This document shows positions 9,418 to 38,437 of a stretch of 46,074 bases of DNA, in pieces. Position 1 is the stretch's first letter; every line of letters starts with the position of its first letter. Location: NCBI GenBank assembly GCA_014727925.1, contig WJMN01000027.1, positions 1 through 46,074 on the forward strand, read 5' to 3'. This stretch comes from Candidatus Micrarchaeota archaeon (GTDB lineage Archaea > Micrarchaeota > Micrarchaeia > Anstonellales > Bilamarchaeaceae). The notes under the pieces were generated by a model. The model worked only from the letters and a program-made list of their open reading frames with translations. It searched no databases and was not told where the DNA came from. The translations under genes were made by a program, and so were the position numbers.

Positions 9418-9513
9418 CTGAGATAGATTGAGTAGATAATCTTTTATAGTTCCTCTTATATTCTCCAATTTATGTGCAATGTAGTCCTTGAAGGTACCCG
9501 TGCGGTTCTTGAT

Positions 9514-19297: not shown

Positions 19298-19523
19298 TCA
19301 CTCACCAAAAATAGTTCTGTATCTAACTGTTTTCTAAATATTTATAAAGGGTATTGCTATTTTCCAACTACTTTTCTGAAAAATAGGTTTATGTACTCAT
19401 TGTGAATAAAAGTGTTTAAAAATGTTTCTATTGCTTCCAAAGCCCAACATTTGTGGCAATTTCTGGCCAATAGTTGCTTTTCCTTACTATATTTAAGCCT
19501 TCCGGCTATTATAATATAAACTA

Positions 19524-20984
19524 ATGAAGGGCAGGCTCATCCATCGACCTACTGCAAAGCATCGTATTGCACCCCCCAGAGTATGCAGTGCAAAAATAAA
19601 GAGGCACAGCCGCCAACTGCACCTTCCGGGATGCTCCCGAATTCTTAAGCGACCAATGCCCGATGCAATTCTTTCTCCCCATGAATCCCATTCCATAGGA
19701 AACCTCAGAAAAATACTTGATGCTAACAGCTATACTCCAAGGGCAAAGAAGTTTATTGAGAAAGCCTATGCATTTTCCGAGAATCTTTACCAGGGAAAAA
19801 GAAGGGATGACGGAACCCACACAATAACCCACCCGCTTGCAGTGGCTGTGCGCGCGGCCAAAATGCGCCTATCTGAATACGCGGTATGTGCTGCCCTACT
19901 CCACGATTCAATAGAGGATACAAACCGTACAAAAAACCAGCCAGGGCAGGTTCTCCCCGACCACATCCTAAATCTTTTTGGAGAAAACCCCCCTGCCAGA
20001 AGATGCGGGGAAGAAACCCTAAAAACCGTCCTCCTACTCACAAAACCAAAATATCTTGACCGGCCAGGAACCCCCAAAAACCTGCGCTGGATTTCCCCTG
20101 ATAACAAACAGTATTTCAGCATAAATGATGATTATCAGCAGTGCTACAAGAGAGAGAACTATTTCTATGATGAGAGGAGCCGTATTTACTATGACCGCCT
20201 TCTGAATTCAGGGAACATAGTTGCAATAGTATTGAAAGAGCTGGACAACATACACAATGCTGAAACAATGAAAGGGATTTCCCGGGAAAAAATAATGAAG
20301 AATCTCAGGACCATGGGGACCAACACCCTTCAGCACGCAGGCATATTTTTTGTTGAAAAAGATGTGCAATACATAAAGGGCCTTTTTAGGGACCTTGGAG
20401 TAACTGTGGACCTCATGCTGACCCCTGCCCGCCCCCGTTCAGAAGTCATTTCCTTTAAATTGCGGGACAGGATTGACCTGGAAACACTTGTTTCCCATCC
20501 CGACCCCCAGTATACCTATATTTCACTCTATGGTTCAATACCCGAAGTCGCCCTTATGCTGGATTATGTTGAAATTGGGCTTCCCCCCCGCCTTGGCCTG
20601 AACTACAAGGAACTTCTGAATATTTATTTCAATGGGGATTTTCTCCTGGAGGAGGGGAAGAGCGTTGTTCCATCCACTTCCCCTGTAAATGAGCACATAC
20701 TACGGGTCGGAGGCTTCCTTGACCAGAAAACCAGGAACAAGGTGCTCCGCCCTTCTGATGAGGAGTCTGGCTATTTTGAACTGCTCGGGTACGGCGGTGA
20801 AGTAGTTACCCGTGCCACCCTTCATGGAGTGAAGGAAGGCGATGTAAAATTGGGGGAACCAACAAGGGAACCTCTTAAGCAGGTTAAGCAGCAATACCAC
20901 CTCCTCAATCTGTACCTTTGTGGATTTTACCAGGACGTCCTTGTCCCAATCCTGGAAAAAATGGACATAAACAAAAGCAGCTAA
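19524..20984 (+). CDS. RelA/SpoT-type HD hydrolase domain protein with basic N-terminal tail and unknown C-terminal domain
   Basis: IEKAYAFS...GKRRDDG...ITHPLAVA, AALLHDSIEDT, LLTK and IVLKELDNIHN match the RSH hydrolase motifs. TATA-like TATTTAAG lies about 27 nt before the ATG. Confidence 0.8.
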   Translation: MKGRLIHRPTAKHRIAPPRVCSAKIKRHSRQLHLPGCSRILKRPMPDAILSPHESHSIGNLRKILDANSYTPRAKKFIEKAYAFSENLYQGKRRDDGTHTITHPLAVAVRAAKMRLSEYAVCAALLHDSIEDTNRTKNQPGQVLPDHILNLFGENPPARRCGEETLKTVLLLTKPKYLDRPGTPKNLRWISPDNKQYFSINDDYQQCYKRENYFYDERSRIYYDRLLNSGNIVAIVLKELDNIHNAETMKGISREKIMKNLRTMGTNTLQHAGIFFVEKDVQYIKGLFRDLGVTVDLMLTPARPRSEVISFKLRDRIDLETLVSHPDPQYTYISLYGSIPEVALMLDYVEIGLPPRLGLNYKELLNIYFNGDFLLEEGKSVVPSTSPVNEHILRVGGFLDQKTRNKVLRPSDEESGYFELLGYGGEVVTRATLHGVKEGDVKLGEPTREPLKQVKQQYHLLNLYLCGFYQDVLVPILEKMDINKSS

Positions 20985-21033
20985 CTGCCTGCCCCGGGCA
21001 ATTATTTAAAACCTCCCTATTATTATCCTATCA

Positions 21034-21651
21034 ATGGAATCCAGTGTTTCCCAGTTTAATTTTTTAGGACTCAAGCTTGATGTATTCAGGGGTGTCTATG
21101 CCCCGCAGGAAGACTCCATTCTCCTAGCCAAGCACACCCATTCAATCTGCGGAAACATACTTGAGCTGGGTACTGGATGTGGCATTTCCGCCCTTTCAAA
21201 TGCTTCGCGCAATCCGAAAAATTATGTTCTTGGCCTTGACATCAATCCAAAAGCAGTGAAGAATGCAGAGTACAATGCCAGCCACAATAAAATCAGGAAC
21301 GCCCGTTTTATCCAGTCAGACCTTTTTTCCGTAGTCCCCACTCTCCGCTTTGATGCAATCCTTTTCAATCCGCCCTATCTTCCAGAAAGCCACCGGCCCC
21401 AGGGAAAGCCCTCTCCGGTAGATGCCGCGCTTTACAGCGGCAGGGATGGCCGCCTTCATACTGATTCTTTCCTCCATCACTTGGATGATTACCTTCTTCC
21501 CGGGGGCAAGGCCTTTCTTGTCCAGAGCACCCACACAGACATCCCCCGTACCCTGGAACTTTCCCATTCCCTTGGCTTTTCATCAGAAATAGTGGAAGAG
21601 CAATCTTTCTTTTTTGAGAAAATCGCCCTGCTCAAACTGTTTAAAGAATGA
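21034..21651 (+). CDS. HemK2/Mtq2-family N5-glutamine methyltransferase
   Basis: VYAPQEDSILL, LELGTGCG, DINP, SDLF, FNPPYLP. Confidence 0.9.
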   Translation: MESSVSQFNFLGLKLDVFRGVYAPQEDSILLAKHTHSICGNILELGTGCGISALSNASRNPKNYVLGLDINPKAVKNAEYNASHNKIRNARFIQSDLFSVVPTLRFDAILFNPPYLPESHRPQGKPSPVDAALYSGRDGRLHTDSFLHHLDDYLLPGGKAFLVQSTHTDIPRTLELSHSLGFSSEIVEEQSFFFEKIALLKLFKE

Positions 21652-22807
21652 TGTAAACTTTTCCCTTTTTGCTTACAGTCATCGCGGTTTCCCCCGACCA
21701 GTCAAAGGTTTTTGAGTATGCTTTTTCCAGCTTTAATTTCATTCCCGGCCTTATGGGGTTGCCCCTCTGGTTGAAAAGGTAAATCAGCCCCTCGCTCCCG
21801 TCCGGGTCAGCCACCACAATACGGGTAAACACATCCTTTTTCGTCTTTGTCCTCTGATAATCCTTGTGCTCAAGCGATTTCACATAAAGCGCTCCCGTGT
21901 TTATGTTTTTCATTCCGCTCTGTATCTCAGTAATGTCTGTTATGTTCAGTTCCTTATAGCGTTTTTTCGCCACATCAAATGCAAGCTTTATCTGGTCCTC
22001 AGTGTTTTTGGTCAGCTTTTTCATTGCCTTTTTCATCACCTTTTCGTCTCCTTTGCTGGCCATCATAGTATCAAATGCAAACTTGAATACAGTTCCCCCC
22101 GGGGACATATCCGCATTTTCCTTTGCCCATTCTTCCTCCGGGCTGGGTCCATCCTCAACTGCGCTCTCATCCTCCAGTGAGCTTTTTTCAACTTCCTTGA
22201 ATACTTCGTCTGGCTTGAGCTCCTTGGTTGAAACAAGCCCCAGCTCTTCTGCAAGGGATTTCTGCCGTGGTTCAGATACTTCTGTTTCTTTTTCCCCACT
22301 GCCAGCAACAACATCCAGGTAGCCCTCCAGCATCTCCTCAACTACTTTCTTGTTTTCCTTGCTTATTTCCCTTTCTCCCCCCTCTTTCTCCTCCATGGCC
22401 TTCATGTACATTTTCTCAAGGGTAGGCATCATCCTCTTCTTCATCTTTTTTGCCCGCTCCTTGCCAAGCTTTTCCTCAAACATTTTCTCTATCGGCTCAA
22501 GCATTTTTTCCCGCGCGGTGGTCCGGGGCCTTTCCTGCTCCTCCTTCTCCTCTTTTCTCTCCCCGTTTTCCCCCTTGGAAAAAACATCTGCAAAGGACAT
22601 CATTTCCGGTTCTTTTCCCTTTGCCTCATCAAGCAGCTTACGGGCCGTCTCCTGAACGTTCTTGTCCTTGTCATAAGTAAGCTCAACAAGCGCAAACATT
22701 GCGCCTGGTGCATCGTATTTTGCAAGCTCTACTGCAGCCTGCTTCCTGACCTTTGGGTCCGAATCAAAGGTTAATGAGATAAGTTCATGCAGCCCCATCT
22801 TCTTCAT
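21641..22807 (-). CDS. HEAT-repeat protein with charged linker and C-terminal SSB/RPA-like OB fold
   Basis: HEAT repeats DSDPKVRKQAAVEL and DKDKNVQETA. OB-like C-terminus ITEIQSGMKNIN...VVADPDG...IYLF...IRPGMKLKLEKAY. Confidence 0.7.
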   Translation of the reverse strand: MKKMGLHELISLTFDSDPKVRKQAAVELAKYDAPGAMFALVELTYDKDKNVQETARKLLDEAKGKEPEMMSFADVFSKGENGERKEEKEEQERPRTTAREKMLEPIEKMFEEKLGKERAKKMKKRMMPTLEKMYMKAMEEKEGGEREISKENKKVVEEMLEGYLDVVAGSGEKETEVSEPRQKSLAEELGLVSTKELKPDEVFKEVEKSSLEDESAVEDGPSPEEEWAKENADMSPGGTVFKFAFDTMMASKGDEKVMKKAMKKLTKNTEDQIKLAFDVAKKRYKELNITDITEIQSGMKNINTGALYVKSLEHKDYQRTKTKKDVFTRIVVADPDGSEGLIYLFNQRGNPIRPGMKLKLEKAYSKTFDWSGETAMTVSKKGKVYIIL

Positions 22808-23549
22808 GTTCTCTACCTTCCAGTTCTTCAAGCACAACCCTCAGCACATTCATCACCGAGCGTCCCTCCTTCTCAGTGGGGTTTGCCCGACCGATTATCC
22901 TCCTGAATGCCACCTCGCACCTTTTTGGATTGCGGAACGTATATCTCCCTACCAAACTTTTAAACATTTGGTTAAGCACTTCCTTTTCCTTTCCATGAAG
23001 CCTCTCTTCCCTCGTTTTTCTCTTTTTCCCAAGCCCCAGCGCATAGATTGCAACCGCCACTGCATGGGAGAGGTTCATAACAGGGTATTCGCTGTTTGTT
23101 TCTATATTAACAAGGTAGTCACATTCTCCGATTTCCCCCTCATCCAGCCCGATTCCTTCTCTCCCGAACACCAGGGCCAGGTTGCCCTTGTATCCCCCGC
23201 GCATTTCCCTGAATTTTTTTAGTGGCACCACTGTCCTTATGCTTCCCCGGTGCCGCCTTATTATTCCTGTGAACCCAACTGCAGCATCACAGTCTTCCAC
23301 CGCTTCCCTGAGGCTCCCGAACCTCTTTGAGCTTTCTAGCACCTCTCTTGCATGCTTTGAATACATTATTGCTGTTTTACCCGCAGGGCAGGCTGGTTCC
23401 ACAACCCTCAGTTCATCCAGCCCAAAGTTTTTCATTACCCTTGCGACCATCCCAAGATTGGTTTCGTATTCCGGGCCTACAAGCACAATAATGCTCCTGC
23501 CCCTTCCTCCGGGCTTTGCCTTCTTTTTTGTTTTTTTCTGAAGTGCCAC
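22785..23549 (-). CDS. trmJ: TrmJ-family SPOUT tRNA methyltransferase
   Basis: NLGMVARVMKNFG, LVFGREGIGL, YPVMNLSHAV. Confidence 0.9.
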   Translation of the reverse strand: MALQKKTKKKAKPGGRGRSIIVLVGPEYETNLGMVARVMKNFGLDELRVVEPACPAGKTAIMYSKHAREVLESSKRFGSLREAVEDCDAAVGFTGIIRRHRGSIRTVVPLKKFREMRGGYKGNLALVFGREGIGLDEGEIGECDYLVNIETNSEYPVMNLSHAVAVAIYALGLGKKRKTREERLHGKEKEVLNQMFKSLVGRYTFRNPKRCEVAFRRIIGRANPTEKEGRSVMNVLRVVLEELEGREHEEDGAA

Positions 23550-23632
23550 TTTCCCACTCCTTTAAAAGGATTACTCCTATAAACTCCTCTACACAGTTTA
23601 TTTCTAAAAGCTTAAGCATTTTTGTGGTTTGC

Positions 23633-24163
23633 ATGGACATTGAGGAAGTAGAGCAACGGATAGATGAGCTGGAAAATAAGAAATCCAAGCTCATTTCCGA
23701 GATAAAAAAGAACTACGGCAGAATCCGTTACAAGAAGTATGAAGAAAAGGCACTGGAGCCCTTCCTCAAAGAGACCCAGGATGTTATGGTGGGCCCTGTC
23801 CGCAAGAAACTGCGCAGGCTTGAGTTCAAGATTGCCACGCAGGCATACACCCCCCAGATAGAGCGCCAGCTTGTCAAAGAGGTAAAGAAAGTTGAGGACA
23901 AGCTAAAGGAGCTCCGCGCAGTTGAAAAGGCAAGGCGCAAGAAGAAGCTTGTGAAGCAGGACATTGAAGAAGCGGAAAACCGCATTTCTGAAATAGAGGA
24001 AGAGCTTACCGGGATGCGGGCAGAGCTCAAGGAGCTCTATGGAAAGCGCAAGGCCCTCAGGTCCGGCAAGAAGCACGGCATTGTGTTCGGGGAAAAGCCC
24101 GACGATATGGTCTCCATGGAGGATATTGTTGTCCTTGAGGATACCCGGGAAAAAAGAGATTAG
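23633..24163 (+). CDS. Archaeal coiled-coil protein
   Basis: Heptad-rich sequence; the LEFKIATQAYTPQIERQLVKEV segment resembles COG1340-like proteins. Confidence 0.7.
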   Translation: MDIEEVEQRIDELENKKSKLISEIKKNYGRIRYKKYEEKALEPFLKETQDVMVGPVRKKLRRLEFKIATQAYTPQIERQLVKEVKKVEDKLKELRAVEKARRKKKLVKQDIEEAENRISEIEEELTGMRAELKELYGKRKALRSGKKHGIVFGEKPDDMVSMEDIVVLEDTREKRD

Positions 24164-24201
24164 ATATTCCCCCATTTCAAAATGAAATGCTTCCACCAAT
24201 T

Positions 24202-24582
24202 TTATTTTTTGCCCAGGCACCCAATTATTTCTCCATGGTCAAAGGCAAGCTCCGGAAGCTCATCTAGCAGAAACCATCCCGCTTCCCCAGCATCATCGCC
24301 ACCCATCGCCACCCCTCCCCTTTTCCTGCATAGATAAGCAATTGAAATTGTTCTCCTTGGGTCCCTCTCAGGTTCAGAAAAAACGCCAACAATCTCTTCC
24401 ACTTCTACCTCCAGCCCTGTTTCCTCCTCCACTTCCCGCACGCACGCTTCTTCAGCAGTTTCCCCCCTATCCACAAAACCTCCGGGAAGCGCCCACTTTC
24501 CCTTGTCCGGTTCCCTCCCCCTTTTTATGAGCAATATTTTTCCATTTTCAATAATAAGCGCATCAACAGTTGCAGGCCGCAT
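24202..24582 (-). CDS. NUDIX hydrolase (ADP-ribose pyrophosphatase-like)
   Basis: WALPGG, Nudix box GETAEEACVREVEEETGL, RDPR, LAFDH. Confidence 0.93.
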   Translation of the reverse strand: MRPATVDALIIENGKILLIKRGREPDKGKWALPGGFVDRGETAEEACVREVEEETGLEVEVEEIVGVFSEPERDPRRTISIAYLCRKRGGVAMGGDDAGEAGWFLLDELPELAFDHGEIIGCLGKK

Positions 24583-24614
24583 GCACCTCTTTATACATAA
24601 AAAGCTTTATCCCT

Positions 24615-24838
24615 TTAGCATTGCCTTCCTGAGCAGGCCCCCCTCAGATTCTTCAGTTTTTCATTTGCTTCCTCATAGCGTGTGAGCGCATCCTTGCACC
24701 GCTGCCCCCTCATAATTTACCTTGCATATCTGGGCAGCCCCACAATCCCCCGGTGATGAGAGCCGAAGCAAAAACTGCGGCAGCAGCCTTCAGGTTAGCT
24801 TTTCCGGGATTTGGCCTCCGGACTAATCTATGCCTCAG
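24615..24838 (-). pseudogene. Frameshifted, truncated paralog of the adjacent lipoprotein gene
   Basis: Starts immediately after the upstream stop with CTG. Joining two frameshifts gives RHRLVRRPNPGKANLKAAAAVFASALITG-GCGAAQICKVNYEGQRCKDALTRYEEA, compared with KTGRKIAAAALSAAMGLGMAGCGKAPQCRVYYRGQERSICTRFLEGY upstream. Confidence 0.65.
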
Positions 24839-25345
24839 TTATCCCCACCCGTATTCAACAAGCTGTTTTCTTATTTTGTTTATGCTTTCAATAAGTTCCC
24901 CGAGTTCCTTGACTGCCTGCTTCATCTCCACTGCTTTTGCTTCCCCCTTGTCTATACGGGATTTGATATAGTGCTTGCTGCTAATTTCCCTCAGCAGGCA
25001 TTCTGCATTTACCCTCATTTCCTCCAGTTTTTGCTCTTCTTCTAAGGTGTTATCCCCCTCTTTCTTTTTTATCGCGATGTTTTTTTCAAGTTCCCGGAAT
25101 TGCCCCCTCATTTTTCTTCCATTTCTTAGTGCCCCCCTGTACCCCTCTAGGAATCTTGTGCAAATGCTCCTCTCCTGTCCCCGGTAATACACCCTGCACT
25201 GGGGGGCCTTTCCGCATCCTGCCATTCCCAAGCCCATTGCTGCAGATAGTGCAGCTGCGGCTATTTTCCTGCCCGTTTTACTCCCCACAGGCCTACTGAT
25301 TTTCCTCATGCTTCTCTTTATTGGCCGGGAATATTTTATAAACAT
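24839..25345 (-). CDS. Putative lipoprotein with coiled-coil C-terminus
   Basis: Basic N-region, Ala-rich H-region, lipobox-like MAGC. Confidence 0.65.
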   Translation of the reverse strand: MFIKYSRPIKRSMRKISRPVGSKTGRKIAAAALSAAMGLGMAGCGKAPQCRVYYRGQERSICTRFLEGYRGALRNGRKMRGQFRELEKNIAIKKKEGDNTLEEEQKLEEMRVNAECLLREISSKHYIKSRIDKGEAKAVEMKQAVKELGELIESINKIRKQLVEYGWG

Positions 25346-25405
25346 AACCTTTCACCAACTACCATATCCTTTCTTTTTTAAATAGAAGCAACCAGAAGTG
25401 TTTGC

Positions 25406-26731
25406 ATGGAGTTGGGTAAGAGCCTAAGAAAGCTCGTTTCCAAGATAACGAATGCGCCGGTTGTTGACGAGAAGGCAGTAAAGTCTTTTGTCCGCGACCT
25501 CCAGCGTGTGCTGATCGCATCTGATGTGAGCGTAAAGCTGGTTTTTGACCTGACCAAGAGGATAGAGAAACGCGCCCTGGAGTCCGAGCAGCTTGAGGGC
25601 CTCACCCTCCGGGAGCACCTCCTGAAGATTGTCCATGATGAGCTGATTGCTTTTATGGGTGCTGCATACTCCCCCCGCATGGACAAGCACAAAATCCTCC
25701 TTATGGGGCTCTTCGGCGCGGGAAAAACTTCTACAACAGGAAAGCTTGCTTACTTTTACAAAAAGCGCGGTTTCAAGGTTGGGGTGGTGGGCGCAGACGT
25801 TGAGAGACCCGCAGCCCAGGAGCAGCTCCAGCAGCTCTCAGAGCAAATCGGAGTTAATTTCTATACTGTAAAAGGCGAACCCGAAGCCTATAAGGTGGTG
25901 GAGGATGCACTTTCCCGTTCTGAAGATGATGTTCTTATTGTGGATTCCGCAGGAAGAAATGCATTTGATGACCGCCTTGCCGAGGAGTTATCCAAAATAA
26001 AAAAAGCACTTTCCCCTGATGAATCATACCTGGTTTTGAGCGCTGATGTGGGGCAGGTTGCAGGAAAGCAGGCAGAGCAGTTCAATTCCCTCGTCCCAAT
26101 CAGCGGAGTCATTGTTACCAAGATGGATGGTTCAGGAAAAGGGGGAGGCGCCCTCTCTGCCGTTTCCGCTTCCGTGGCCAAAATTGCATTTGTAGGAATG
26201 GGGGAAAAAATGGAGGACCTGCAGGTTTACGACCCTGCAAAATACGTGGGCCGCCTTCTGGGAATTCCTGATATTGAAGGCCTTATGGAGAAGGTGAAGG
26301 CTGCCTCAGAGCAAGCCCAGATTTCCCCGGAAGACATCAAGGAATTCACAATAGAAACTTTTTACCAGCAACTTAAGGCCGCAAAAAACATGGGGCCCCT
26401 AGGCGGCATTTTTTCCATGATGGGAATGAGCGACCTTCCTGAGGAAATGGTAAACCAGGGTGAAGGAAAGCTCCAGGAATATGAAGCAATAATCAATTCC
26501 ATGACCAAAGACGAGCGCAAGGATGTTTCCCTGATTAGAAAGTCTCGTTCCCGCATGGAAAGGATTGCAGAAGGCTCCGGCCACCCGCTTGAGGATGTCC
26601 GTGCCTTCCTCTCCCAGTTTTCCAAAATGGAGAAGATGTTTACCCGCTTCCGAAAAGACAGGGGTTTCCGCAAGAAGATGGAAAAGATGCTAAAAGGCGG
26701 AGGGGGCGGAATGAACCTGCCCGGAATGTAA
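25406..26731 (+). CDS. srp54: Signal recognition particle protein SRP54
   Basis: GLFGAGKT, DVERPAA, DSAGR, TKMDG..KGGGALS, M domain (MGPL, IINSMT.DER, RIAEGSG). Confidence 0.96.
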   Translation: MELGKSLRKLVSKITNAPVVDEKAVKSFVRDLQRVLIASDVSVKLVFDLTKRIEKRALESEQLEGLTLREHLLKIVHDELIAFMGAAYSPRMDKHKILLMGLFGAGKTSTTGKLAYFYKKRGFKVGVVGADVERPAAQEQLQQLSEQIGVNFYTVKGEPEAYKVVEDALSRSEDDVLIVDSAGRNAFDDRLAEELSKIKKALSPDESYLVLSADVGQVAGKQAEQFNSLVPISGVIVTKMDGSGKGGGALSAVSASVAKIAFVGMGEKMEDLQVYDPAKYVGRLLGIPDIEGLMEKVKAASEQAQISPEDIKEFTIETFYQQLKAAKNMGPLGGIFSMMGMSDLPEEMVNQGEGKLQEYEAIINSMTKDERKDVSLIRKSRSRMERIAEGSGHPLEDVRAFLSQFSKMEKMFTRFRKDRGFRKKMEKMLKGGGGGMNLPGM

Positions 26732-26733
26732 TC

Positions 26734-27216
26734 CTAAATTTTCTTTCCTGCTCCGCTAAGCATTTCCCCAAAATCTTCCTTTACTATCTTGTCAAATTCA
26801 CACTCCAGCCGCTCTCCGAGCTCATGAATCCTTTCTGCATCCTCACCCCGAATCAGCATAAAGTTCCCGAGCTGGTTTATATGCACAAGCCATATTTCTT
26901 CTCTTCCCAGAACGTAAACTTTCTTTTCCATTACAACCTGCCCGAGGCTGCTGAACAGTTTGTTGAAAATCCTCCTTGCCCCCATTGCTTCCCCAACCGG
27001 GGTTAAAGCAATATCAAAGCACCCGTTTTCTTCATTGTATGCAACCAGCACCATCCGGGCCCCCTTCTCACCCTGCACTATTTTCAGCGCCCCCCGGCCC
27101 TCAGTGTCAAAATAAATAGCCGTTTCCTTAAACTCCCCCACCTTGCTACCATCTAGGTTCCTGATCTTCTGCTCTATTCCTGCAAATCCCCCGCACCGTA
27201 CTTTCAGCTCTTTCAT
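26734..27216 (-). CDS. Degenerate CYTH (class IV adenylyl cyclase-like) protein
   Basis: N-terminal KELKVR (ExExK-like), ETAIYFD, and KKVYVL...HINQLGNF (DxVxxLGxFxE-like) with acidic residues lost. Confidence 0.55.
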   Translation of the reverse strand: MKELKVRCGGFAGIEQKIRNLDGSKVGEFKETAIYFDTEGRGALKIVQGEKGARMVLVAYNEENGCFDIALTPVGEAMGARRIFNKLFSSLGQVVMEKKVYVLGREEIWLVHINQLGNFMLIRGEDAERIHELGERLECEFDKIVKEDFGEMLSGAGKKI

Positions 27217-27270
27217 ATTAGATAGAGTTTTAGCGCTATATTTTTAATCTTCACTTTACATTTTCAAAAC

Positions 27271-27483
27271 ATGCCCATCAAAATAAATCATTCCAGGTGC
27301 ATACAGTGCATAGGGTGCGCATCAGTATGCCCCACCGGGGCAATTGAACTGGATGGCCTCAGGATGGTCTTCCATCCCGAGAAATGCATTTCCTGCGGCG
27401 CATGCGCAAGGGCCTGCCCTGCAAACGCAATCAAGTTTATCCCCAAAGAAGGGGCAAAGCAGGAGCAGAAAAAAGAGGAATGA
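27271..27483 (+). CDS. 2x[4Fe-4S] ferredoxin
   Basis: CIQCIGCASVCP and CISCGACARACP. Confidence 0.95.
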   Translation: MPIKINHSRCIQCIGCASVCPTGAIELDGLRMVFHPEKCISCGACARACPANAIKFIPKEGAKQEQKKEE

Positions 27484-27488
27484 TTCCC

Positions 27489-29508: not shown

Positions 29509-29634
29509 CTTTCTTTTAGTGTTTAAAAAAGTTTAAAAATGTATCAAGGGTTTCGGCTCTCTCCACTTACCCATACATATTTATTCCTTATTAATATATA
29601 AACAACCATTAGTCAAGGCTGAAGGTGTCCAAAA

Positions 29635-30741: not shown

Positions 30742-31351
30742 GCTTGGGCTGGAGGATGCGCTTCATTGTGCTCCATCTTTCCCTTATCTCCCCTATCAGT
30801 TTTTTTCTTGTTTCCGGGTTTCTTAGTGCAGCAATCGTATCCTTATCTGAAGTGTATCCACAACCTATTTTTTCTCCAACCCGTTTTTCCAGCTCATGCA
30901 CCATCCTATCCCGCGTAACTTTTGCAATTATTGATGCAGCCCCGACAATGGGGTATTTTAGGTCCGCTTTGTGCTCTGCAACAATTCCCCGTTCTGCGAG
31001 CCCCGCCTTCCTCAGGAAATGCTCCACGTTTCTTTCCGGCAAGTCCAGGTAGATCTTACCTTCCAGCGGCTTAATCAGCGCCCCCATCTCCTTTGCTTCA
31101 ATCAGGTTCAGGGATTCTCTCCCCATCCTTCTATTCAGTTCTGAAGCAGCAATAATCCTGGAACTGCATCTGCACAGTTTGTTTATCTCTGGAAAAAGCT
31201 CTTCCCTCCTGGAGGCAGTGAGCTTTTTGGAATCAGTAACCCCCATCTCAGAGAGTTCCCCCCGTCTTTCCTCCTCAATACTCGCTACAGAAATAATAAG
31301 CGGGCCAAGCACTGGCCCTCTCCCGCTTTCATCCACACCAGAGAGGAGCAT
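30728..31351 (-). CDS. rnhB: Ribonuclease HII with C-terminal PIP-box
   Basis: GVDESGRGPVLGP, DSKKL, HKAD, AASIIAKVTRD; C-terminal QPKLTDF. Confidence 0.95.
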   Translation of the reverse strand: MLLSGVDESGRGPVLGPLIISVASIEEERRGELSEMGVTDSKKLTASRREELFPEINKLCRCSSRIIAASELNRRMGRESLNLIEAKEMGALIKPLEGKIYLDLPERNVEHFLRKAGLAERGIVAEHKADLKYPIVGAASIIAKVTRDRMVHELEKRVGEKIGCGYTSDKDTIAALRNPETRKKLIGEIRERWSTMKRILQPKLTDF

Positions 31352-31356
31352 GTGCC

Positions 31357-31617
31357 CTACTCTGTATGGAAGCTTCTCTTCTCAACAATTACGAAGTCCC
31401 CCACTGCGAGCACAGCATCATAGGGACACATAATCAGCCCATCTTCCTGCCTCATCTCTTCAGCAAGCGGATTGTCCGGATTGGGCTCAACAATAAGCTC
31501 CTCGATTTTGCCGGTTATCTCATTTATGTTTACATCAACGAGTCTTCCGAATTCCTCACCGTCGTTGGTGATGACCTTTTTTCCTGACATTTGTCTAGCG
31601 AGTGTGTACTTGCCCAT
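31357..31617 (-). CDS. PRC-barrel protein (CdpB-like cell-division family)
   Basis: GKKVITNDGEEFGRLVDV, TGKI..LIVEP, PYDAVLAVGDFVIV. Confidence 0.85.
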   Translation of the reverse strand: MGKYTLARQMSGKKVITNDGEEFGRLVDVNINEITGKIEELIVEPNPDNPLAEEMRQEDGLIMCPYDAVLAVGDFVIVEKRSFHTE

Positions 31618-31689
31618 TGGAACGCACCGAGAGTTTATTACTTAAAAAGTTTATAAACCCTACTCTTTTAATTCAGTAGGGTGGTCCTA

Positions 31690-32325
31690 ATGGTCGAGAA
31701 ATTATTCAGAAAAGAGCCTTACCTGGGCTCCTGCGAATCTACAGTGGCCTCTTCAGAGGGCCGGGAAGTCACCCTGGACAAAACAGTATTTTTTGCTTTT
31801 TCAGGGGGACAGCAGTCTGACTCAGGCACCATAGGAGGCTTCAACGTACTTGAAGCACGGGCAGAAGGCCCGGAAATCCACTATAAGCTAGAAGAAGGCG
31901 CTAACATTAAGGAAGGCGACAGGGTGGAAGTAAGAATTGACATGGAAAAAAGAAAACGCATCATGTGCCTGCATTCTGCCGCCCATCTTGTTTATGGTGT
32001 TTTTTCCAAACAATATGGACCCAAGAAGCTAATTGGCTCCAATGTAACAGGAGACAAGGCAAGGATAGATTTTGAGCATCCAGAATCAGTTTCCGGACTC
32101 CTCCCCCCAGTAGAAGAGGAAGCCAACAGGCTTATTGATGAAAATCCCCCTGCAAAAACATACCCTGATGAACATAACCCAGATACATGGTGGTGGGAGT
32201 GCATGGACTTCAAATACCCCTGTGGAGGCACCCATGTACAATCCTTAGGGGAAATCGGCAAAATAAAGCTCAAAAGAAAAAATATCGGTTCAGGCAAGGA
32301 ACGGATAGAGATAACTCTAGCGTAA
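31690..32325 (+). CDS. alaX: AlaX-M alanyl-tRNA editing protein
   Basis: GGQQSDSG, Zn ligands HSAAH and CGGTH. Confidence 0.92.
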   Translation: MVEKLFRKEPYLGSCESTVASSEGREVTLDKTVFFAFSGGQQSDSGTIGGFNVLEARAEGPEIHYKLEEGANIKEGDRVEVRIDMEKRKRIMCLHSAAHLVYGVFSKQYGPKKLIGSNVTGDKARIDFEHPESVSGLLPPVEEEANRLIDENPPAKTYPDEHNPDTWWWECMDFKYPCGGTHVQSLGEIGKIKLKRKNIGSGKERIEITLA

Positions 32326-32367
32326 AACGGGCCATGTTTTCTTCAGCTATGTTGAAGAGATGCAGCC

Positions 32368-32412
32368 GAATCGTGAACTCTGTTCACTAGAAGAAAGCGA
32401 AGCTTTCTCAGA
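32368..32412. repeat. Dispersed double-hairpin palindromic element, copy 1
   Basis: gaatcGTGAACtctGTTCACtagaAGAAAGCgaaGCTTTCTcaga; 39 of 45 positions identical to 45982-46026. Confidence 0.85.
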
Positions 32413-32466
32413 GGTTACAAAGATTGCGGAAATTTTTACCACAGCTTAACACAGCACCCAAAAATT

Positions 32467-33612
32467 TCAGGGCTGCATCCACTCTATCTCGTAATATTCG
32501 TATTTGCTTCCGGGCAATTCAATCCTCTTAATCAAGTAGTAAGTAACTGAGCTTTCCCTATCCGCAATTGCCACAAGCAAATCCAGCCCTCTTCCCAGGC
32601 AGGTTCTGAGTGAGGCAGCTAGCTCTTCTCCCCCAAGATACTCATCCTCCGAAAGCGAGAGCATCAGGAATGAGGGGTTTCCTGTTTTTGGGGATTCTAC
32701 ATCCTGCCCCTTCCTGTGGTAGAGGGCAAAATCCACCTCCCCCTTCTTTACTTTTCCCCTTCCCGGAATTGCAAGTATAAACGTTTTCTTAACTGAATGC
32801 GCTACCCTTATTGCCCTGGCCCATTCTGAAATAAGAAGCGAGCTTTTCCTTGGAAAAACGTGCAGCACGTGCTTTGAATGCGTCCATTCCCTGCCCTTTC
32901 CAGGCCCTGCTCCAGGAGGGTAAATCCTGAAATGCGTACCAAACTTGAAACCTGTTTTTACAACATACCCCGCCTCTCTCCATTCCCGGTAAACATTGTT
33001 AAGATCCTCAAAATATTCAATCCTCCCGCATGCCACTTTCTTGATTTTCCCTGCATCGCAGTTTTCCAGCAGCAGTTTTTTCTTGTCTATCAACAGGAGG
33101 GTCTCAAATACGTCCAGTTTTGAGATGCTTCCTCTGTGCGCGGCCTTGTAAGTGCCCATCTGGCCCAGCCAGTATTCCTGATAAAGTTTCTCCCCCGCTT
33201 CCTTATCATCAATGGTACATATCAGGTCATCAAGGAAAAACATTCCCCCTGCCGTTTGCATTTCCAGCCCAATTTCCCCCCGCATATACCTATGTAAGGA
33301 ATTCTCCCCCTTGCTTCCTTTCTCCCCCTTTTCCGGCTTGATGAACAGCCCCCGGTCCCTCCAGTCCTTGTAAGTCATGTATCTCGCAAGGAGCTTTTTT
33401 CCAGAAAATTTCCCTGCCAGTTCATTGAATCCAATCACCATTCCCTCAGAATCTATGCATTCTGCCCCCCTCACATCAATAAGGTAAAGGGCCTCCTCCG
33501 GCTCCAGCACTATCCCTTCTTTTCTTTTTTCTCCATACTGCCCCTTTACGAGCGCAGTAATTGTTTGTGCATCTCCGGCAACTGCCTGCTTTCCGTCCCA
33601 AGAAAGTTTCAT
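32467..33612 (-). CDS. endA: tRNA splicing endonuclease, three-unit epsilon (ARMAN/Micrarchaeota) type
   Basis: Partial N-unit (EEALYL...YKDWRDRG), full catalytic unit (GFKFGTHFRIY, THSKH, VAHSVKK giving the Y/H/K triad) with a GTYK insertion loop, and a C-terminal structural unit; 381 aa. Confidence 0.9.
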   Translation of the reverse strand: MKLSWDGKQAVAGDAQTITALVKGQYGEKRKEGIVLEPEEALYLIDVRGAECIDSEGMVIGFNELAGKFSGKKLLARYMTYKDWRDRGLFIKPEKGEKGSKGENSLHRYMRGEIGLEMQTAGGMFFLDDLICTIDDKEAGEKLYQEYWLGQMGTYKAAHRGSISKLDVFETLLLIDKKKLLLENCDAGKIKKVACGRIEYFEDLNNVYREWREAGYVVKTGFKFGTHFRIYPPGAGPGKGREWTHSKHVLHVFPRKSSLLISEWARAIRVAHSVKKTFILAIPGRGKVKKGEVDFALYHRKGQDVESPKTGNPSFLMLSLSEDEYLGGEELAASLRTCLGRGLDLLVAIADRESSVTYYLIKRIELPGSKYEYYEIEWMQP

Positions 33613-33662
33613 AACTGCTCTTTACCTGCAAGAGTTTAAATTATTCCCGCCCAAACAATCTC

Positions 33663-34046
33663 ATGGAATCAGAGCGTGCCCCTGATGTTCAGTTCATGCT
33701 TGAGGAAATACTTGAGCAGCTTCAGCTTGAGCATGTTATAAATTCCAGGATTATATGCATGCGGAGCCGCGGTGCAAAGGTAGCTGCCTATGCCCGCATA
33801 TGGTCTCTCCCCGCAATCTGGAGGAATGCCCTGGAAATCAACCCCTTTTACATAATAGAGGTGGTAAGCGAGGAGTACGACCATCTCCCAGAAGAGGAAA
33901 AAAAGAAAATCCTAATCCACGAGCTCCTTCACATCCCAAAGAAATTCACCGGGGGACTAGTACCCCACAAGAACCGCGGAAGAAGAATAGATGACCGTTT
34001 TGTTGATGAGCTTTATTCCCGCTACCGTTCTGCAAGAAAGGTATGA
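33663..34046 (+). CDS. Putative metallopeptidase (COG4900-like)
   Basis: YARIW, YIIEV, LIHELLHIP (HExxH), PH. Confidence 0.8.
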   Translation: MESERAPDVQFMLEEILEQLQLEHVINSRIICMRSRGAKVAAYARIWSLPAIWRNALEINPFYIIEVVSEEYDHLPEEEKKKILIHELLHIPKKFTGGLVPHKNRGRRIDDRFVDELYSRYRSARKV

Positions 34047-34052
34047 ACCTGC

Positions 34053-34529
34053 CTATCCAAATCCTGCACGGTAAGCTTTTACGAAGTTTATTTCCTCCTG
34101 CCCAACAAATGCATAAAAAAGAGCCTTTCTCATTTTCCCAGAAACCTGCAAATCCTCAAGCAGTGGGGGCTGTTCATCCATAGGGAGCACTTTAAGCAGG
34201 AATTCTGTGCGGTCCTGCCCAACTCTTATTCCCTTTTTGTAAATCCTGAGAAAGCTTCCCGGCCCGAAACGGACAATCCTGCCGGATTCCCGCAGCTTCT
34301 CTAACACAAGGAATTTTTCCCTTGCCAGAGAGTCTTCATGCAGGGCAATCCCAATGAGTTCACTGCTGCTTTTTCCTGTTGATATTTTTCCTTTTTCCTG
34401 GAAGTAGGCAGCTTCAATAAGGGGCATTTCCAGCACCCCGTCGTTTTCTCTTCCTGCACCGAGCAGCCCCAGTTTTTCAACCATCTCCGGGTTGTCCTCT
34501 AGGTACCTACCCTGTTCTATTTTCCCCAT
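34053..34529 (-). CDS. Non-catalytic tRNA-splicing-endonuclease-like (beta/pseudo-beta) subunit
   Basis: IEAAYF, LEKLRESGRIVR, FLRIYKKG, GKMRKALFYAFV; the catalytic His is absent. Confidence 0.7.
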   Translation of the reverse strand: MGKIEQGRYLEDNPEMVEKLGLLGAGRENDGVLEMPLIEAAYFQEKGKISTGKSSSELIGIALHEDSLAREKFLVLEKLRESGRIVRFGPGSFLRIYKKGIRVGQDRTEFLLKVLPMDEQPPLLEDLQVSGKMRKALFYAFVGQEEINFVKAYRAGFG

Positions 34530-34987
34530 TACTCATGCCTCTTTTTTCCAATATATCCGGAAATGCATCCAGACATTTTTTCCAGGTATTTGTTGGGTAT
34601 GCTCCCCATCGTAATCTCTGTTTTTGTTGTGCCTGCAGTGTCCACCTTTAGTGTCCCAAGCATGAATACCCGGTCAATAAGGTTATGGTCCACGTTTATG
34701 TTGGTTATTCTTTCATATGGCACGTAAGTGGTTTTCTTGTTGAACAGCCCCTTGTGCAGGGTAATTCCCTCAGTATCCACGTCTATGTACTGGATTTTTG
34801 CTTTAATAAATGAGATTACCCCTGAAGCCCCTGCAAGTACCCATACTAGAAAAATTAGTGCGTGGAGCGGCAGCTCCATCCAGTTATTCAGGCTGAAGAG
34901 AATAAAACTGACTACCACTGCGGCGACAAATGCTGTGAAATATTCCCTTCTTCCGGAACGCCGCACGACAAATTCAGTTTCAACCAT
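34529..34987 (-). CDS. Membrane protein with bacterial PH (bPH_2) domain
   Basis: Two TM helices, then KGLFNKKTTYVPYERITNINV...GTLKVDTAG. Confidence 0.85.
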   Translation of the reverse strand: MVETEFVVRRSGRREYFTAFVAAVVVSFILFSLNNWMELPLHALIFLVWVLAGASGVISFIKAKIQYIDVDTEGITLHKGLFNKKTTYVPYERITNINVDHNLIDRVFMLGTLKVDTAGTTKTEITMGSIPNKYLEKMSGCISGYIGKKRHE

Positions 34988-35041
34988 ATGCAGAAACAGT
35001 TATAAACAAAGAAATAAAAATCAATTGCAGGTGCACTCAAA

Positions 35042-35422
35042 ATGATAATATATACAGATGGAGCGTGTTCAGGCAATCCCGGCCCAATGGGAGTGGGGGC
35101 GGTTGTTTACAAGGGAGGGAAAATCCTCATGGAAATAAGCGAGAACCACGGGGACGGAACCAACAATATTGCAGAATACCTTGCAGTAAGGCGGGGTCTT
35201 GAGGAGGCGATCACTCTTGGTGCGGACGCAGTGGAGGTCCGCACAGATAGCCGCCTGGTGGTGCGCCAGCTTAGCGGCAAGTTCCGCATCAAAAAGCCCC
35301 ATCTTCGGGAGCTCAAAGCAGAGATAGAGGAGCTTTCCGAGGGCCTGGATGTGCGGTATACCTGGATTGAGAGGGAAAAGAACAATCTTGCAGACAAGCT
35401 TGCAAAAGATGCAATAAGGTGA
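35042..35422 (+). CDS. rnhA: Ribonuclease HI
   Basis: YTDGACSGNPGP, TNNIAEY, TDSRLV, WIEREKNNLADKLA. Confidence 0.93.
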   Translation: MIIYTDGACSGNPGPMGVGAVVYKGGKILMEISENHGDGTNNIAEYLAVRRGLEEAITLGADAVEVRTDSRLVVRQLSGKFRIKKPHLRELKAEIEELSEGLDVRYTWIEREKNNLADKLAKDAIR

Positions 35423-35423
35423 G

Positions 35424-36548
35424 GTGGTGAGAAGGGATCCTGGCACTTATTTCACTTTTGAGGCTTCCAAGCCCCTCCCCTTCCACCGCTGGTTTTACTA
35501 CAAGGAAGCATTTTCCCCTCCGGTTGTTGATTATTTTCTTGAATATTTTTCTTCCACCGGCCCTGTTTTTGACCCCTTTTCCGGAATAGGCACAACTCCA
35601 CTTTCCTGCAAAGCGTCCGGCTTGAAAAGCACAGCAATAGATATATCCCCCCTAGCTGTTTTTGCTTCACGCACAAAATGCGCAGATTATTCAGAAGAGG
35701 ATATTGGGGCTGCAAAAAATGAGCTCAAGGCCTTTTTCAAGAACCGGCAGGAACCCAGTTTCAGCTGGGATTTTGAGCTTTTCTCACCCCGCAAATTCTT
35801 CTCCAAGCGCAATTACAATGACATCTGCTTTATCCGGGAAAAAATTGAACAGATGGAAAACCAGAAAGTAGGCTCCCTGTTTCTCCTGGCCCTCCTCTCC
35901 ATACTCCCCCAGTCCGGCTTCTTCATAAAAGACGGCGGAGTTCTGCGCCTTGAAAAATCCAAGAGCGCCATCCCCGCAAAACATGCGTTCAAGAAAAAAG
36001 TAAAGCAGATGCTGGGAGATATAGAAATCAGCCCCATCTCCGGCCCTGAGCCGGAAATATTCCTTGCAGATGCCCGCAGCTTTTCTCCCCCTCCCCATGA
36101 ACTATTCATAACCTCCCCCCCATACCTCAACAACATAGACTATTCCAAGGTTTATGGATTAGAGCTTTCCCTGCTTTCTATGGAGAAGAATGCATCCCTC
36201 CAGATGCGCAGGGAGGCTCTGCGCTCATTCATCACAAAAGACTCAAGCAGGTCCGAGCCCCCGGAAGAAGCGGGTGAAATCGCCCACAGGATTCCGGTTG
36301 CAGGCCAGTATTTCTCAGACATGGAGAAAGTGCTCCAAAATCTCTACAAAAGTACAGAAAAAGGTGGTGCCCTGATTGTGGGCAATGCAGTTCTCCAGGG
36401 AGAGCACATAGAAGTGGACAGAATTCTTGGGGAAATAGGGAAAAGAATCGGGTTCGAATATGAAATTCCTCTCTGGATGGAAAGGATTGCGGACGTAAAG
36501 CCGGCAAAATTAAAAGTGCGGGAAAGTGCAGTAGTATTCAGGAAATAG
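35424..36548 (+). CDS. Orphan amino (N4C-like) DNA methyltransferase
   Basis: HRWFYYKEAFS, motif I DPFSGIGTT, motif IV TSPPY. Confidence 0.85.
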   Translation: MVRRDPGTYFTFEASKPLPFHRWFYYKEAFSPPVVDYFLEYFSSTGPVFDPFSGIGTTPLSCKASGLKSTAIDISPLAVFASRTKCADYSEEDIGAAKNELKAFFKNRQEPSFSWDFELFSPRKFFSKRNYNDICFIREKIEQMENQKVGSLFLLALLSILPQSGFFIKDGGVLRLEKSKSAIPAKHAFKKKVKQMLGDIEISPISGPEPEIFLADARSFSPPPHELFITSPPYLNNIDYSKVYGLELSLLSMEKNASLQMRREALRSFITKDSSRSEPPEEAGEIAHRIPVAGQYFSDMEKVLQNLYKSTEKGGALIVGNAVLQGEHIEVDRILGEIGKRIGFEYEIPLWMERIADVKPAKLKVRESAVVFRK

Positions 36549-38381
36549 CTACTTTTTCCTGCCGTTTTTCCTCCTCTCCACTGACTTAAGGTACTTTATT
36601 CTCGCCCTCAGCATTTCAAGGGCTTCAGGAGTGGTGATTTTTCCAATCAGTGCAGTACATGTTGGCCGGTTAATCCCGGTGCTTTCTTTACCCCCCAGCT
36701 CTACAAACACATGCGAGGGGGCCCGGTCAAATATTGCAAGGGGGTTTCCCTCCTTATCCTTTGCTGTTGCATATTCTTCAAAACCAACAAAGTGGTGCTC
36801 TCTTCCCTCTTTGTATTCTATAAGGGCAATGACTCCAGCAACACATTCACCGGGCCGGGTTATTACTGCTTGTTTTTTTGAGATTTCCCTCCTTCCCTTT
36901 CTCCTCTCCACAACTTCAACCCTTGCTACCCTTTCCTTCCTGCCATTTTCCTCCAAACCAGTCCAGCTGTTTCTGGTTATGGATGCTTCTACATTGTTTG
37001 CAAGTTCTTCTATCCTTCGTGACATTGCTTCTACAATTGCATCTGTAATCACATTCCCTACTTTCTTACCCCTAGAAAGCCTTCCTTTTGTGCATTCTTC
37101 CTGCAGCTCCCTGGTCCTTACCTGTATCTCTACCGGAATTTCCCTCTCTTCCCCCTTTTCCCCAACCAGCATCTTTATCTTGAGGTGGGGTGCCCTGTAA
37201 CCTGTTCTTCTTTTTCCGTATTTAAGCTCTTCAAGCTTTATTTTGCCCCTATATGCATTTCCAAGGTCCATTGCAAGGGCGCTTGCCGCCACCAAAGCAT
37301 CCTTGCTCTGCGGCTCCCTGGGGTTTTTCTTTGTTTTATCCACAACAACGGTTATCCCAAGAATGTCAGTAATGTGTTCCAGGCCAAACTTTTCCTCCCC
37401 CGATTTTCTTTTTTCCTTTATTTTCCGGAACATTCTTGAGGAGGATTTTACCCTTGAGCATTCCTCTGGGTCAATTGTCTGTGACTCAAGGCTGAGTTTC
37501 CATGAATATCTTTTTTCAGTTCTCCTAAGCGACCCGTGTATACTCCTCCTGCCCCCAAGAAGTATTTTCTGGGCCCTTTCTGCAAACGGGAGAATTTCCG
37601 CCCTGTACTCCTGACATTTTTTGTATAGCTCCCTGTCATTTTCCATGCCCTTGTAGTTGCCCAATTCCAATATAGTTTCAGTTGCCACTCGTCCTATCTC
37701 ACCGATTGTTTCTGCAGTCATTCCCAGGGTTTCTGCAATAGGATAATGGACCATCTCCAGGGCCTTTCCTGTTTCCAGCTTCTCTTCCTTTCCAAGCTCC
37801 CCCCTGATTCCAAAATATTTTACATGCATCTGCCTGGCAACCAGCACGGGCACAGGGAATTCCCCATCCTGCAGGGGCTCAGCATAGAGCACCCCATATT
37901 CTTTTTCCCCTTCACCTGCCCTAAGTTTGTCCAGTTCTTCAATCATCTGGTATTTTTCCCACAGGGATTTTGTCCTTTCCCTGTATCCCAGAATAGTGTT
38001 TTGTCTCGTGTCTGCCATCTCTTCCCCATGCCTCGCATAAATCAGCGCATTTCTGATTTCTTCATCCCCAAAAAGCCTCTGGATTCTTTTATCAAGTTCT
38101 TCTAGGAATCTGTCTGCACCATTTTTCCCAAGGCATACCATAGCAGATAGGGCGCACGCAGCCAGCCCCTCTCGTATTCCCCTGGGGCCATATCCCCCAG
38201 GCTCAAACAGGCCCCTCATCTCCTCTATCATCCCTTCTGTTTTTTCTTTTCTTTCGCCTGCAATTTTATCCAGTGCATTGCGGTATGCCTTCATTAGCCT
38301 CCCAAATGCCTTCTCCTGCTGCTTTACTAGTGACTTTGGGGGACGGGATGGTCGCGTTGCCCGTTTTCTCCTGGGTGGCAT
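36549..38381 (-). CDS. Divergent long RelA/SpoT homologue: degenerate HD plus (p)ppGpp-synthetase-like domain plus unknown or TGS-like C-terminus
   Basis: HYPIAETLGM (YAPLA.RLG-like), RVK...RK, ITDILGI, TGYRAPH, PVEIQVRT. The N-half has remnants LMKAY, LAACALSAMV (HD lost) and IQRLFGDE. Confidence 0.75.
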   Translation of the reverse strand: MPPRRKRATRPSRPPKSLVKQQEKAFGRLMKAYRNALDKIAGERKEKTEGMIEEMRGLFEPGGYGPRGIREGLAACALSAMVCLGKNGADRFLEELDKRIQRLFGDEEIRNALIYARHGEEMADTRQNTILGYRERTKSLWEKYQMIEELDKLRAGEGEKEYGVLYAEPLQDGEFPVPVLVARQMHVKYFGIRGELGKEEKLETGKALEMVHYPIAETLGMTAETIGEIGRVATETILELGNYKGMENDRELYKKCQEYRAEILPFAERAQKILLGGRRSIHGSLRRTEKRYSWKLSLESQTIDPEECSRVKSSSRMFRKIKEKRKSGEEKFGLEHITDILGITVVVDKTKKNPREPQSKDALVAASALAMDLGNAYRGKIKLEELKYGKRRTGYRAPHLKIKMLVGEKGEEREIPVEIQVRTRELQEECTKGRLSRGKKVGNVITDAIVEAMSRRIEELANNVEASITRNSWTGLEENGRKERVARVEVVERRKGRREISKKQAVITRPGECVAGVIALIEYKEGREHHFVGFEEYATAKDKEGNPLAIFDRAPSHVFVELGGKESTGINRPTCTALIGKITTPEALEMLRARIKYLKSVERRKNGRKK

Positions 38382-38437
38382 AAATTATAATTACGTGTAA
38401 AATAGTTTATATAGCTTTTCCTCCCCATAATTTTCCT

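Follow-up and report, generated by a model that had tools for sequence, protein, structure and literature searches.

Two RSH-type genes in one archaeal genome

The 46,074-nucleotide stretch of Candidatus Micrarchaeota DNA described here (the whole of which we call the window) belongs to a 1.0 Mb assembly of 59 contigs that is 88% complete, and carries two genes of the RelA/SpoT homologue (RSH) superfamily. Gene A (19524–20984, plus strand; 486 residues) encodes an RSH-type HD hydrolase domain followed by a C-terminal domain without a match. Gene B (36549–38381, minus strand; 610 residues) encodes a pseudo-hydrolase (pseudo-HD), a synthetase, a TGS and a helical (AH) domain, without the ZFD and ACT domains. 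The two open reading frames lie 15,564 bp apart, in agreement with the distance of about 15.5 kb given in a first-pass annotation of the sequence, and are separated by about 20 housekeeping genes (SRP54, RNases H, tRNA endonuclease, inositol-phosphate synthase and others). Both pass curated Pfam cut-offs (A, HD_4, E = 7.8e-9; B, RelA_SpoT PF04607, E = 1.8e-8), each is the sole match of its own family in the window genome and the GC content of each resembles that of its neighbours. Sequence and modelled structure lead us to read A and B as two separately inherited RelA/SpoT-derived 3'-pyrophosphate enzymes and not as a dedicated pair, a reading to which we give a probability of about one half.

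An HD hydrolase with an additional domain

The HD domain of A occupies approximately residues 49–298 (19668–20417, plus strand). In the predicted structure (mean predicted local distance difference test score (pLDDT) 90), its best match is Acinetobacter baumannii SpoT (7qpr; Z 20.4, root mean square deviation (r.m.s.d.) 2.6, 187 aligned residues), followed by Bacillus subtilis Rel (Z 17.8), human Mesh1 (5vxa; Z 17.4) and the small alarmone hydrolases (SAHs; Z 14.8–16.8). Across 64 aligned A-type rows, R94, H103, H127, D128, E131 and D241 are invariant, K238 is kept in 63, N245 in 60 and D132 in 53. A possesses the metal ligands (His, His-Asp and Asp), ED motif, base-stacking Arg and Asn of an RSH-type HD domain. 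Two further positions differ from SpoT: the equivalent of Y51 is T100 in A (Tyr is present in 25 of the 64 rows and absent from 39), and the equivalent of R144 is N242, Arg being outside the six commonest residues of that column. In A. baumannii SpoT, substitution of Y51 is reported to inactivate the enzyme and substitution of R144 to reduce activity five- to tenfold (PMC9974481).

The HD domain is followed by an α/β domain of about 180 residues (approximately 300–480; 20421–20963, plus strand) that is confidently modelled and has conserved R314, Y336, E350, P354 and S380. Comparison by hhalign with 97 bacterial long RSH proteins gave no profile similarity (probability 0.1–0.2%), and Pfam gave no match, one of 28 members having a chance match. 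No usable match was obtained in the Atlas, all rows having a template modelling (TM) score by query below 0.4; the structure searches used the whole protein and were filled by the HD domain, and the C-domain may still have a known fold. It is seen only fused to HD domains. The 1.84-billion profile search added 65 proteins with this C-domain, none of which is fused to a synthetase; nor is any of seven from a search for longer proteins, the latter being weak evidence.

Other identities for A were considered. A pseudo-synthetase or ACT identity for the C-domain rested on a faint HMMER hint (mycobacterial Rel ACT, score −2.6) that hhalign did not support. In a hydrolase-only long RSH of the SpoT[Hs] type, the HD domain would be followed by a pseudo-synthetase, TGS, ZFD and ACT, and none of these was found. 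The conserved extra domain sets A apart from a plain SAH or Mesh1, which consists of a single HD domain. Finally, a possible origin of A and B by duplication of one long RSH gained no support from quick trees, which place A (in an HD tree) and most B rows on long branches outside the canonical long RSH.

From the sequence and the predicted structure, then, A appears to join an HD hydrolase of RSH type to a domain without a match, rather than to be a long RSH minus its synthetase. The first-pass annotation had described the two genes as a split RSH pair; the half of that description concerning B, a synthetase-only protein with a dead hydrolase fold, stands, and the half that makes A a long RSH shorn of its synthetase is not confirmed. 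A-type proteins are about 350–680 residues long and are spread over many Micrarchaeota families. One A-type gene (G037, L261:3641–4985) is split over two frames of 141 and 305 residues, by a frameshift or an assembly error.

A truncated RelA-like synthetase

B was assigned its domains from matches of its AlphaFold model (mean pLDDT 85) to segments of Rel. Residues 19–467 match the N-terminal part of B. subtilis Rel (8acu; Z 19.2, r.m.s.d. 4.7, 304 aligned), and residues 481–603 match the Rel TGS–helical segment (6htq_x; Z 9.6, r.m.s.d. 2.3, 97 aligned). The protein stops after the helical domain: neither ZFD nor ACT/RRM was found, and Pfam gave no ACT match. The pseudo-hydrolase domain (approximately residues 19–230; 37692–38327, minus strand) precedes the synthetase, as in RelA-type long RSH proteins, and is decayed: it retains the HD fold and has lost the HD and ED motifs, the HD aspartate D78 being outside the seven commonest residues of its column in an alignment of 68 B-type rows (including a few duplicates and two truncated rows).

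The synthetase domain (37002–37691, minus strand) retains its catalytic core. With RelSeq numbering counted from the 1vj7 alignment, window B keeps R310, K312, K320, D339, Y395, H399, E418, Q420 and R422 (RelSeq R241, K243, K251, D264, Y308, H312, E323, Q325 and R327). Among the 68 rows, K243 and D264 are invariant, K251 and H312 are kept in 67, E323 in 66 and Y308 in 65, so that the domain has the catalytic Asp and Glu and the acceptor-stacking Tyr of the RSH superfamily. Other positions have changed (R269 to T344, S247 to R316, N306 to T393 and H342 to R437), and the K346 equivalent is also altered. R241 and R269 are described as sandwiching the ATP adenine (PMC7983052); B keeps the first of this pair and has Thr in place of the second, as do 27 of the 68 rows, and its donor site is therefore remodelled. 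Arg at H342 occurs in 11 rows.

The TGS and helical domains (36573–36941, minus strand) lack a residue that Rel and RelA are reported to use in recognizing the tRNA CCA end, the TGS histidine (PMC7797070). It is absent from every B-type row that has a TGS domain, although the TGS fold itself is present. B thus resembles Escherichia coli RelA[hS] (5iqr and 5l3p) and the N-terminal part of B. subtilis Rel (8acu and 6yxa) in domain order and core synthetase residues, but differs in ending after the helical domain, in lacking ZFD, ACT and the TGS histidine, in the change of R269 to Thr, in being archaeal and in being only 13–14% identical in structural alignments. In a quick tree, from which the eight most diverged B rows were left out, most B rows fall on long branches outside the canonical long RSH, without a firm placement.

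Two further sets of synthetases were encountered. In the genus g19 (L264–L269, L275 and L276), many genomes have two tandem B-type synthetases and a few have a third copy elsewhere; some copies end after the synthetase and some are extremely diverged. In family f21 (genus g77, of another order of the same class), four loci that we read (L322:2199–4139, L323:2065–4011, L324:775–2727 and L325:2432–4378) encode a near-canonical, full-length bacterial-type Rel of 647–651 residues, with an intact synthetase, a TGS with the tRNA-sensing histidine, ZFD and ACT. Its HD domain keeps the His-Asp and has Lys or Arg in place of the catalytic Glu; HD matches lie in frames of about 650 residues in five of six f21 genomes. 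This Rel did not group with B in the tree and, judged by its sequence, is a better candidate than B for a ribosome-linked stringent response.

Genomic context

We designate the family and genus of the window genome f1 and g1; f1 is presumably Bilamarchaeaceae. Named relatives carry the labels Micrarchaeota or Micrarchaeia, and one A-type cluster member is labelled Bilamarchaeaceae. In all six congeners with both genes, A lies between a proteasome β gene and a HemK-like gene and B adjoins an epimerase gene; a methylase gene is found on the other side of B in the five whose contigs extend that far. The remainder of the A–B block is also syntenic across the genus. Because the whole housekeeping block is conserved, the linkage of A and B is a by-product of block synteny. 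Elsewhere the distance varies: in G036 the genes share a contig, separated by about 250 kb, in G012 (six contigs) they are on different contigs, in G018 they lie about 3 kb apart and in G067 about 2 kb apart (involving a second copy of B), with unrelated housekeeping genes between them in the last two.

This arrangement bears on the suggestion, made in the first-pass annotation, of a toxin–antidote pair or a tool for manipulating host signalling. In modules of a toxic small alarmone synthetase (toxSAS) and an SAH (FaRel–ATfaRel, FaRel2 and CapRel), the catalytic folds are those of A and B and the SAH can undo the product of the toxSAS. Both genes also evolve fast, as conflict genes do (see below), and the synthetase of B has a weak match to the PADLOC candidate PDC-S33 (E = 1.6e-4). 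However, that match covers only the shared synthetase fold. Such modules are recognized by adjacency and obligate co-occurrence, whereas A and B are neither adjacent nor co-transcribed, lying 15.6 kb apart here and far further in G036, and B occurs without A in 53 of the 85 B-carrying genomes of f1. Both are single-copy in the window genome, fixed in a housekeeping block with the GC content of their surroundings and vertically inherited, and B is a derivative of a long RSH. A toxin–antidote or host-directed role is therefore very improbable, and nothing in the analysis supports the manipulation of host signalling.

Distribution across genomes

The final A and B profiles, widened in rounds, were applied to each of the 176 genomes retrieved for the order, counting as A-type a match that reaches the C-domain and as B-type a long-form frame; rows were read by hand, and the genomes are incomplete and related to one another. 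Both genes were found in 32 genomes, A only in 37, B only in 64 and neither in 43. Within f1 (99 genomes) the corresponding counts are 32, 3, 53 and 11, with B in 32 of the 35 A-carriers and 53 of the 64 others (Fisher p = 0.37, kin not being independent in this test). By genus (23 in f1), 13 have both, seven B only (including g19, in which A was found in 2 of 40 genomes), one A only and two neither; A and B occur together in these 13 genera and in one genome of a fourteenth. Nine of the 53 'B only' genomes of f1 carry a short HD hydrolase; in the other 44 we could find no hydrolase of RSH type. The single-contig genome G021 has B without A.

Outside f1 the two genes occur apart. Family f6 has A-type genes in 28 of 42 genomes, and no long synthetase was found there (two small synthetases of about 355 residues and three weak matches were left uncounted). 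A without B is also seen in f8 (3/3 genomes), f12 (1/2), f4 (1/1) and f11 (1/1), and f9 has B in 11 of 19 genomes, with no A-type gene found. Checks of well-assembled genomes at E ≤ 1 agreed with the counts for the order: four of five genomes of 1–10 contigs have B without A (the fifth has a 30-residue match, E = 0.058), and four of five genomes that are 92–100% complete have A without B (the fifth has only a small synthetase of 202 residues). A sample of 341 genomes from the phylum, searched for A, contains A-type proteins in f17, f18, f19 and f23 of other orders. A few relatives also have small synthetases, or ones with other fusions, at scattered loci (about 200, 355 and 660 or more residues; L042:308–1369, L043:976–2049, L045:1–1989 and L061:1399–2004); these are apparently separate from the B family.

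Evolutionary rates

Co-divergence was assessed on the 26 genomes with A, B and FttA, using this single marker and distances that are saturated. Tree lengths are 26.0 for A, 32.6 for B and 3.8 for FttA, so that A and B evolve 7–9 times faster than FttA. Their distances correlate with those of FttA (0.57 for A and 0.78 for B) and also mutually (0.55); in places the topologies of the two trees conflict. These results fit vertical descent of two fast genes with at most weak coupling.

Such divergence could also mean that, in this sub-lineage, A or B or both have lost much or all of their catalysis and act as nucleotide- or RNA-binding regulators. Window B is altered at the R269, S247, N306, H342 and K346 equivalents and window A at those of Y51, which is essential in SpoT, and R144. 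In the five more distant of the six congeners, A is 32–44% identical to the window protein and the syntenic B only 25–27%, compared with 50–95% for most neighbours. However, in both families the metal ligands and the catalytic acids stay invariant over trees of 26 and 33 changes per site, and the same substitutions recur in other genera (Thr at R269, Arg at H342 and absence of the Y51 Tyr, at the frequencies given above). Loss of catalysis thus seems quite improbable.

Separate inheritance or a dedicated circuit

The distribution and rate data allow separate inheritance to be weighed against a dedicated make-and-break alarmone circuit, of the kind formed by RelA[hS] and SpoT[Hs] in Moraxellaceae, in which lineages without one gene would use an undetected substitute (a short SAH, a Nudix enzyme or a diverged partner). 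The resemblance is that synthetase-only and hydrolase-only relatives share one genome (PMC3153485 and PMC9974481) and that the HD domain of A matches A. baumannii SpoT best. However, SpoT[Hs] is described as a full-length paralogue with a pseudo-synthetase, TGS, ZFD and ACT, in place of which A has its unmatched domain.

Several observations weigh against separate inheritance, and most of them would suit such a circuit. Inside f1, a genome with A almost always has B as well, and two of the three exceptions are only 71–75% complete. Genus g6 was first taken to be 'A only' but turned out to carry a very diverged B, and three apparent 'A only' genomes of f1 proved to be missed diverged B genes; with both families diverging fast, other absences may also be detection failures and more partners may be hidden. 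In g1, seven of eight genomes have both genes, and the search of the eighth (G006) yielded neither; there the epimerase gene abuts the methylase gene, so that the site of B is cleanly empty, and a different gene comes after the proteasome gene, where the contig ends. The correlation between A and B after removal of FttA is weak but present (partial correlation 0.20, permutation p = 0.013). Finally, window A lacks the catalytic Tyr essential in A. baumannii SpoT and window B one ATP-stacking arginine, and either may be weak or use another substrate.

The presence of both genes in 13 of 23 f1 genera and the short HD hydrolases of nine 'B only' genomes likewise favour a circuit. On the other side stand the 28 f6 genomes and those of f4, f8, f11 and f12 with A and no long synthetase found, the 44 f1 genomes with B and no RSH-type hydrolase found, the 11 f9 genomes with B and no A, and the make-up of A, which has neither a pseudo-synthetase nor TGS or ACT and is not shown by the trees to be a paralogue of B. 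On balance we regard a dedicated circuit as unlikely. The RelA/SpoT-like division of labour proposed in the first-pass annotation survives as a possible circuit where A and B coexist, here and in those 13 genera, but each gene is often found without the other. The patchy, independent distributions named there as evidence against the idea are largely what we observe, A-carriers of f1 excepted, and the co-phylogeny that it called for gave only the weak residual signal above, with partly disagreeing topologies.

Promoters, N-terminal tails and neighbouring genes

The first-pass annotation also drew attention to TATA-like boxes and to N-terminal tails rich in R, K and P. Boxes are present at A (TTTAAG; 19492–19497, plus strand) and at B (TATATAAA; 38406–38413, minus strand), each beginning 32 nt 5' of the start codon, that of B in a short gap common to B and the divergent epimerase gene. 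They are not distinctive: of the 32 gene starts inspected across the window, 19 are preceded by such a box, and these are therefore ordinary promoters. The tails are as described, with 14 (A) and 10 (B) R, K or P among the first 25 residues, ranking first and joint third of 51 window proteins, and are predicted to be disordered. Similarity of promoters and tails was rejected as a sign of coupling.

No tRNA genes were found in the window. Two genes for tRNA intron endonuclease subunits (32467–33612 and 34053–34529) flank a phage-metallopeptidase-like gene (33663–34046), an arrangement conserved in the genus. The DNA-methylase-like gene (35424–36548) is convergent with B, their stop codons abutting (36548/36549), in a neighbourhood that is conserved in the genus. 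A 778-residue gene (9472–11808) has no Pfam match and is 83–95% identical in three congeners. At the A site of G006, a different long open reading frame (L115:14234–15910) runs off the contig; its product looks secreted or surface-located, a sequence impression.

Proposed functions

Taking A and B as separately inherited enzymes, we propose the following activities. B would likely transfer pyrophosphate from a nucleoside triphosphate to a 3'-hydroxyl, most likely converting GDP or GTP to (p)ppGpp, since the residues for Mg binding (Asp), catalysis (Glu) and base stacking (Tyr) persist across its family. Having lost the TGS histidine, ZFD and ACT, B would not share the activation of RelA by uncharged tRNA on stalled ribosomes, and would respond to another trigger. 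A is likely a metal-dependent 3'-pyrophosphohydrolase of the Mesh1/SAH type with a housekeeping or protective job of its own. Like Mesh1 and the SAHs (5vxa, 7qoe, 7qoc, 6z3n and 7smg), A has a stand-alone RSH-type HD domain and its family occurs in genomes where no synthetase was found; unlike them, A-type proteins have a conserved C-domain, lack an R144 equivalent family-wide and often lack that of Y51. Hydrolases and synthetases without partners have been described in archaea and eukaryotes, with lone hydrolases in archaea and animals (PMC3153485); NADPH and pyrophosphorylated tRNA are reported as substrates of Mesh1 and the SAHs (bioRxiv 2021.04.30.441581). The job of A may be to clear nucleotides or RNA ends that carry a 3'-pyrophosphate, whatever their source, with the C-domain regulating or directing the enzyme. 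As the only RSH-type hydrolase found in the window genome, A would likely also clear the product of B there, as an optional partner. The substrates proposed for both are tentative, each protein lacking a residue important in bacterial models (the catalytic Tyr in A and the ATP-stacking Arg in B).

In another scheme, B would pyrophosphorylate tRNA at its 3'-CCA terminus to put translation on hold, and hydrolases of the A type would remove such marks, self-made or foreign. ToxSAS enzymes are reported to carry out this reaction and SAH and Mesh1 to reverse it (bioRxiv 2021.04.30.441581). B is a highly basic protein (net +27) in which the guanine-side Asn is no longer present, and loss of the tRNA-sensing histidine implies that canonical activation is not kept. 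However, B is structurally closer to long Rel than to CapRel (7ztb; Z 9.3) or Tas1 (6ox6; Z 8.2), and its persistence without A in 53 genomes of f1 would be hard for an enzyme that blocks tRNA. We consider such RNA-end chemistry decidedly unlikely.

Implications for archaeal alarmone biology

(p)ppGpp was reported not to be detected in two model archaea, and the enzymes are described as absent or rare in archaea, a 2023 review still calling them rare (PMC8646023 and PMC10249747). RelA/SpoT genes of inferred bacterial origin have been listed for DPANN groups (Diapherotrites 69.0%, Woesearchaeota 41.7%, Pacearchaeota 21.3% and Nanoarchaeota 19.0%; PMC8407392); Micrarchaeota are not among the groups listed, and synthetase-only and hydrolase-only forms are not separated in that list. 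Our search of the open-access literature, subscription journals lying outside it, found no published study of Micrarchaeota RSH enzymes.

Against this background, one Micrarchaeota family has a RelA-derived synthetase in 85 of its 99 genomes, and the order has, in 69 of 176 genomes, an HD hydrolase joined to an unmatched domain, a protein also present in other orders. Both families keep their catalytic cores in spite of their rate. The case for a coupled system in this window is weak; the broad archaeal A and B families and the unmatched domain, which may be a new regulatory module, are worth testing, and two soluble proteins make the archaeal alarmone question directly testable. A bolder proposal, which we hold only tentatively and think rather doubtful, is that Micrarchaeota run an inherited, ribosome-independent pyrophosphate messenger system, in which rewired B-type synthetases are joined by a new class of C-domain hydrolases that erase their product or defend against the alarmones and tRNA marks of hosts or neighbours. 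If true, this would be the first alarmone signalling in archaea, its product would be (p)ppGpp or a new variant, and the C-domain would be an undescribed sensor.

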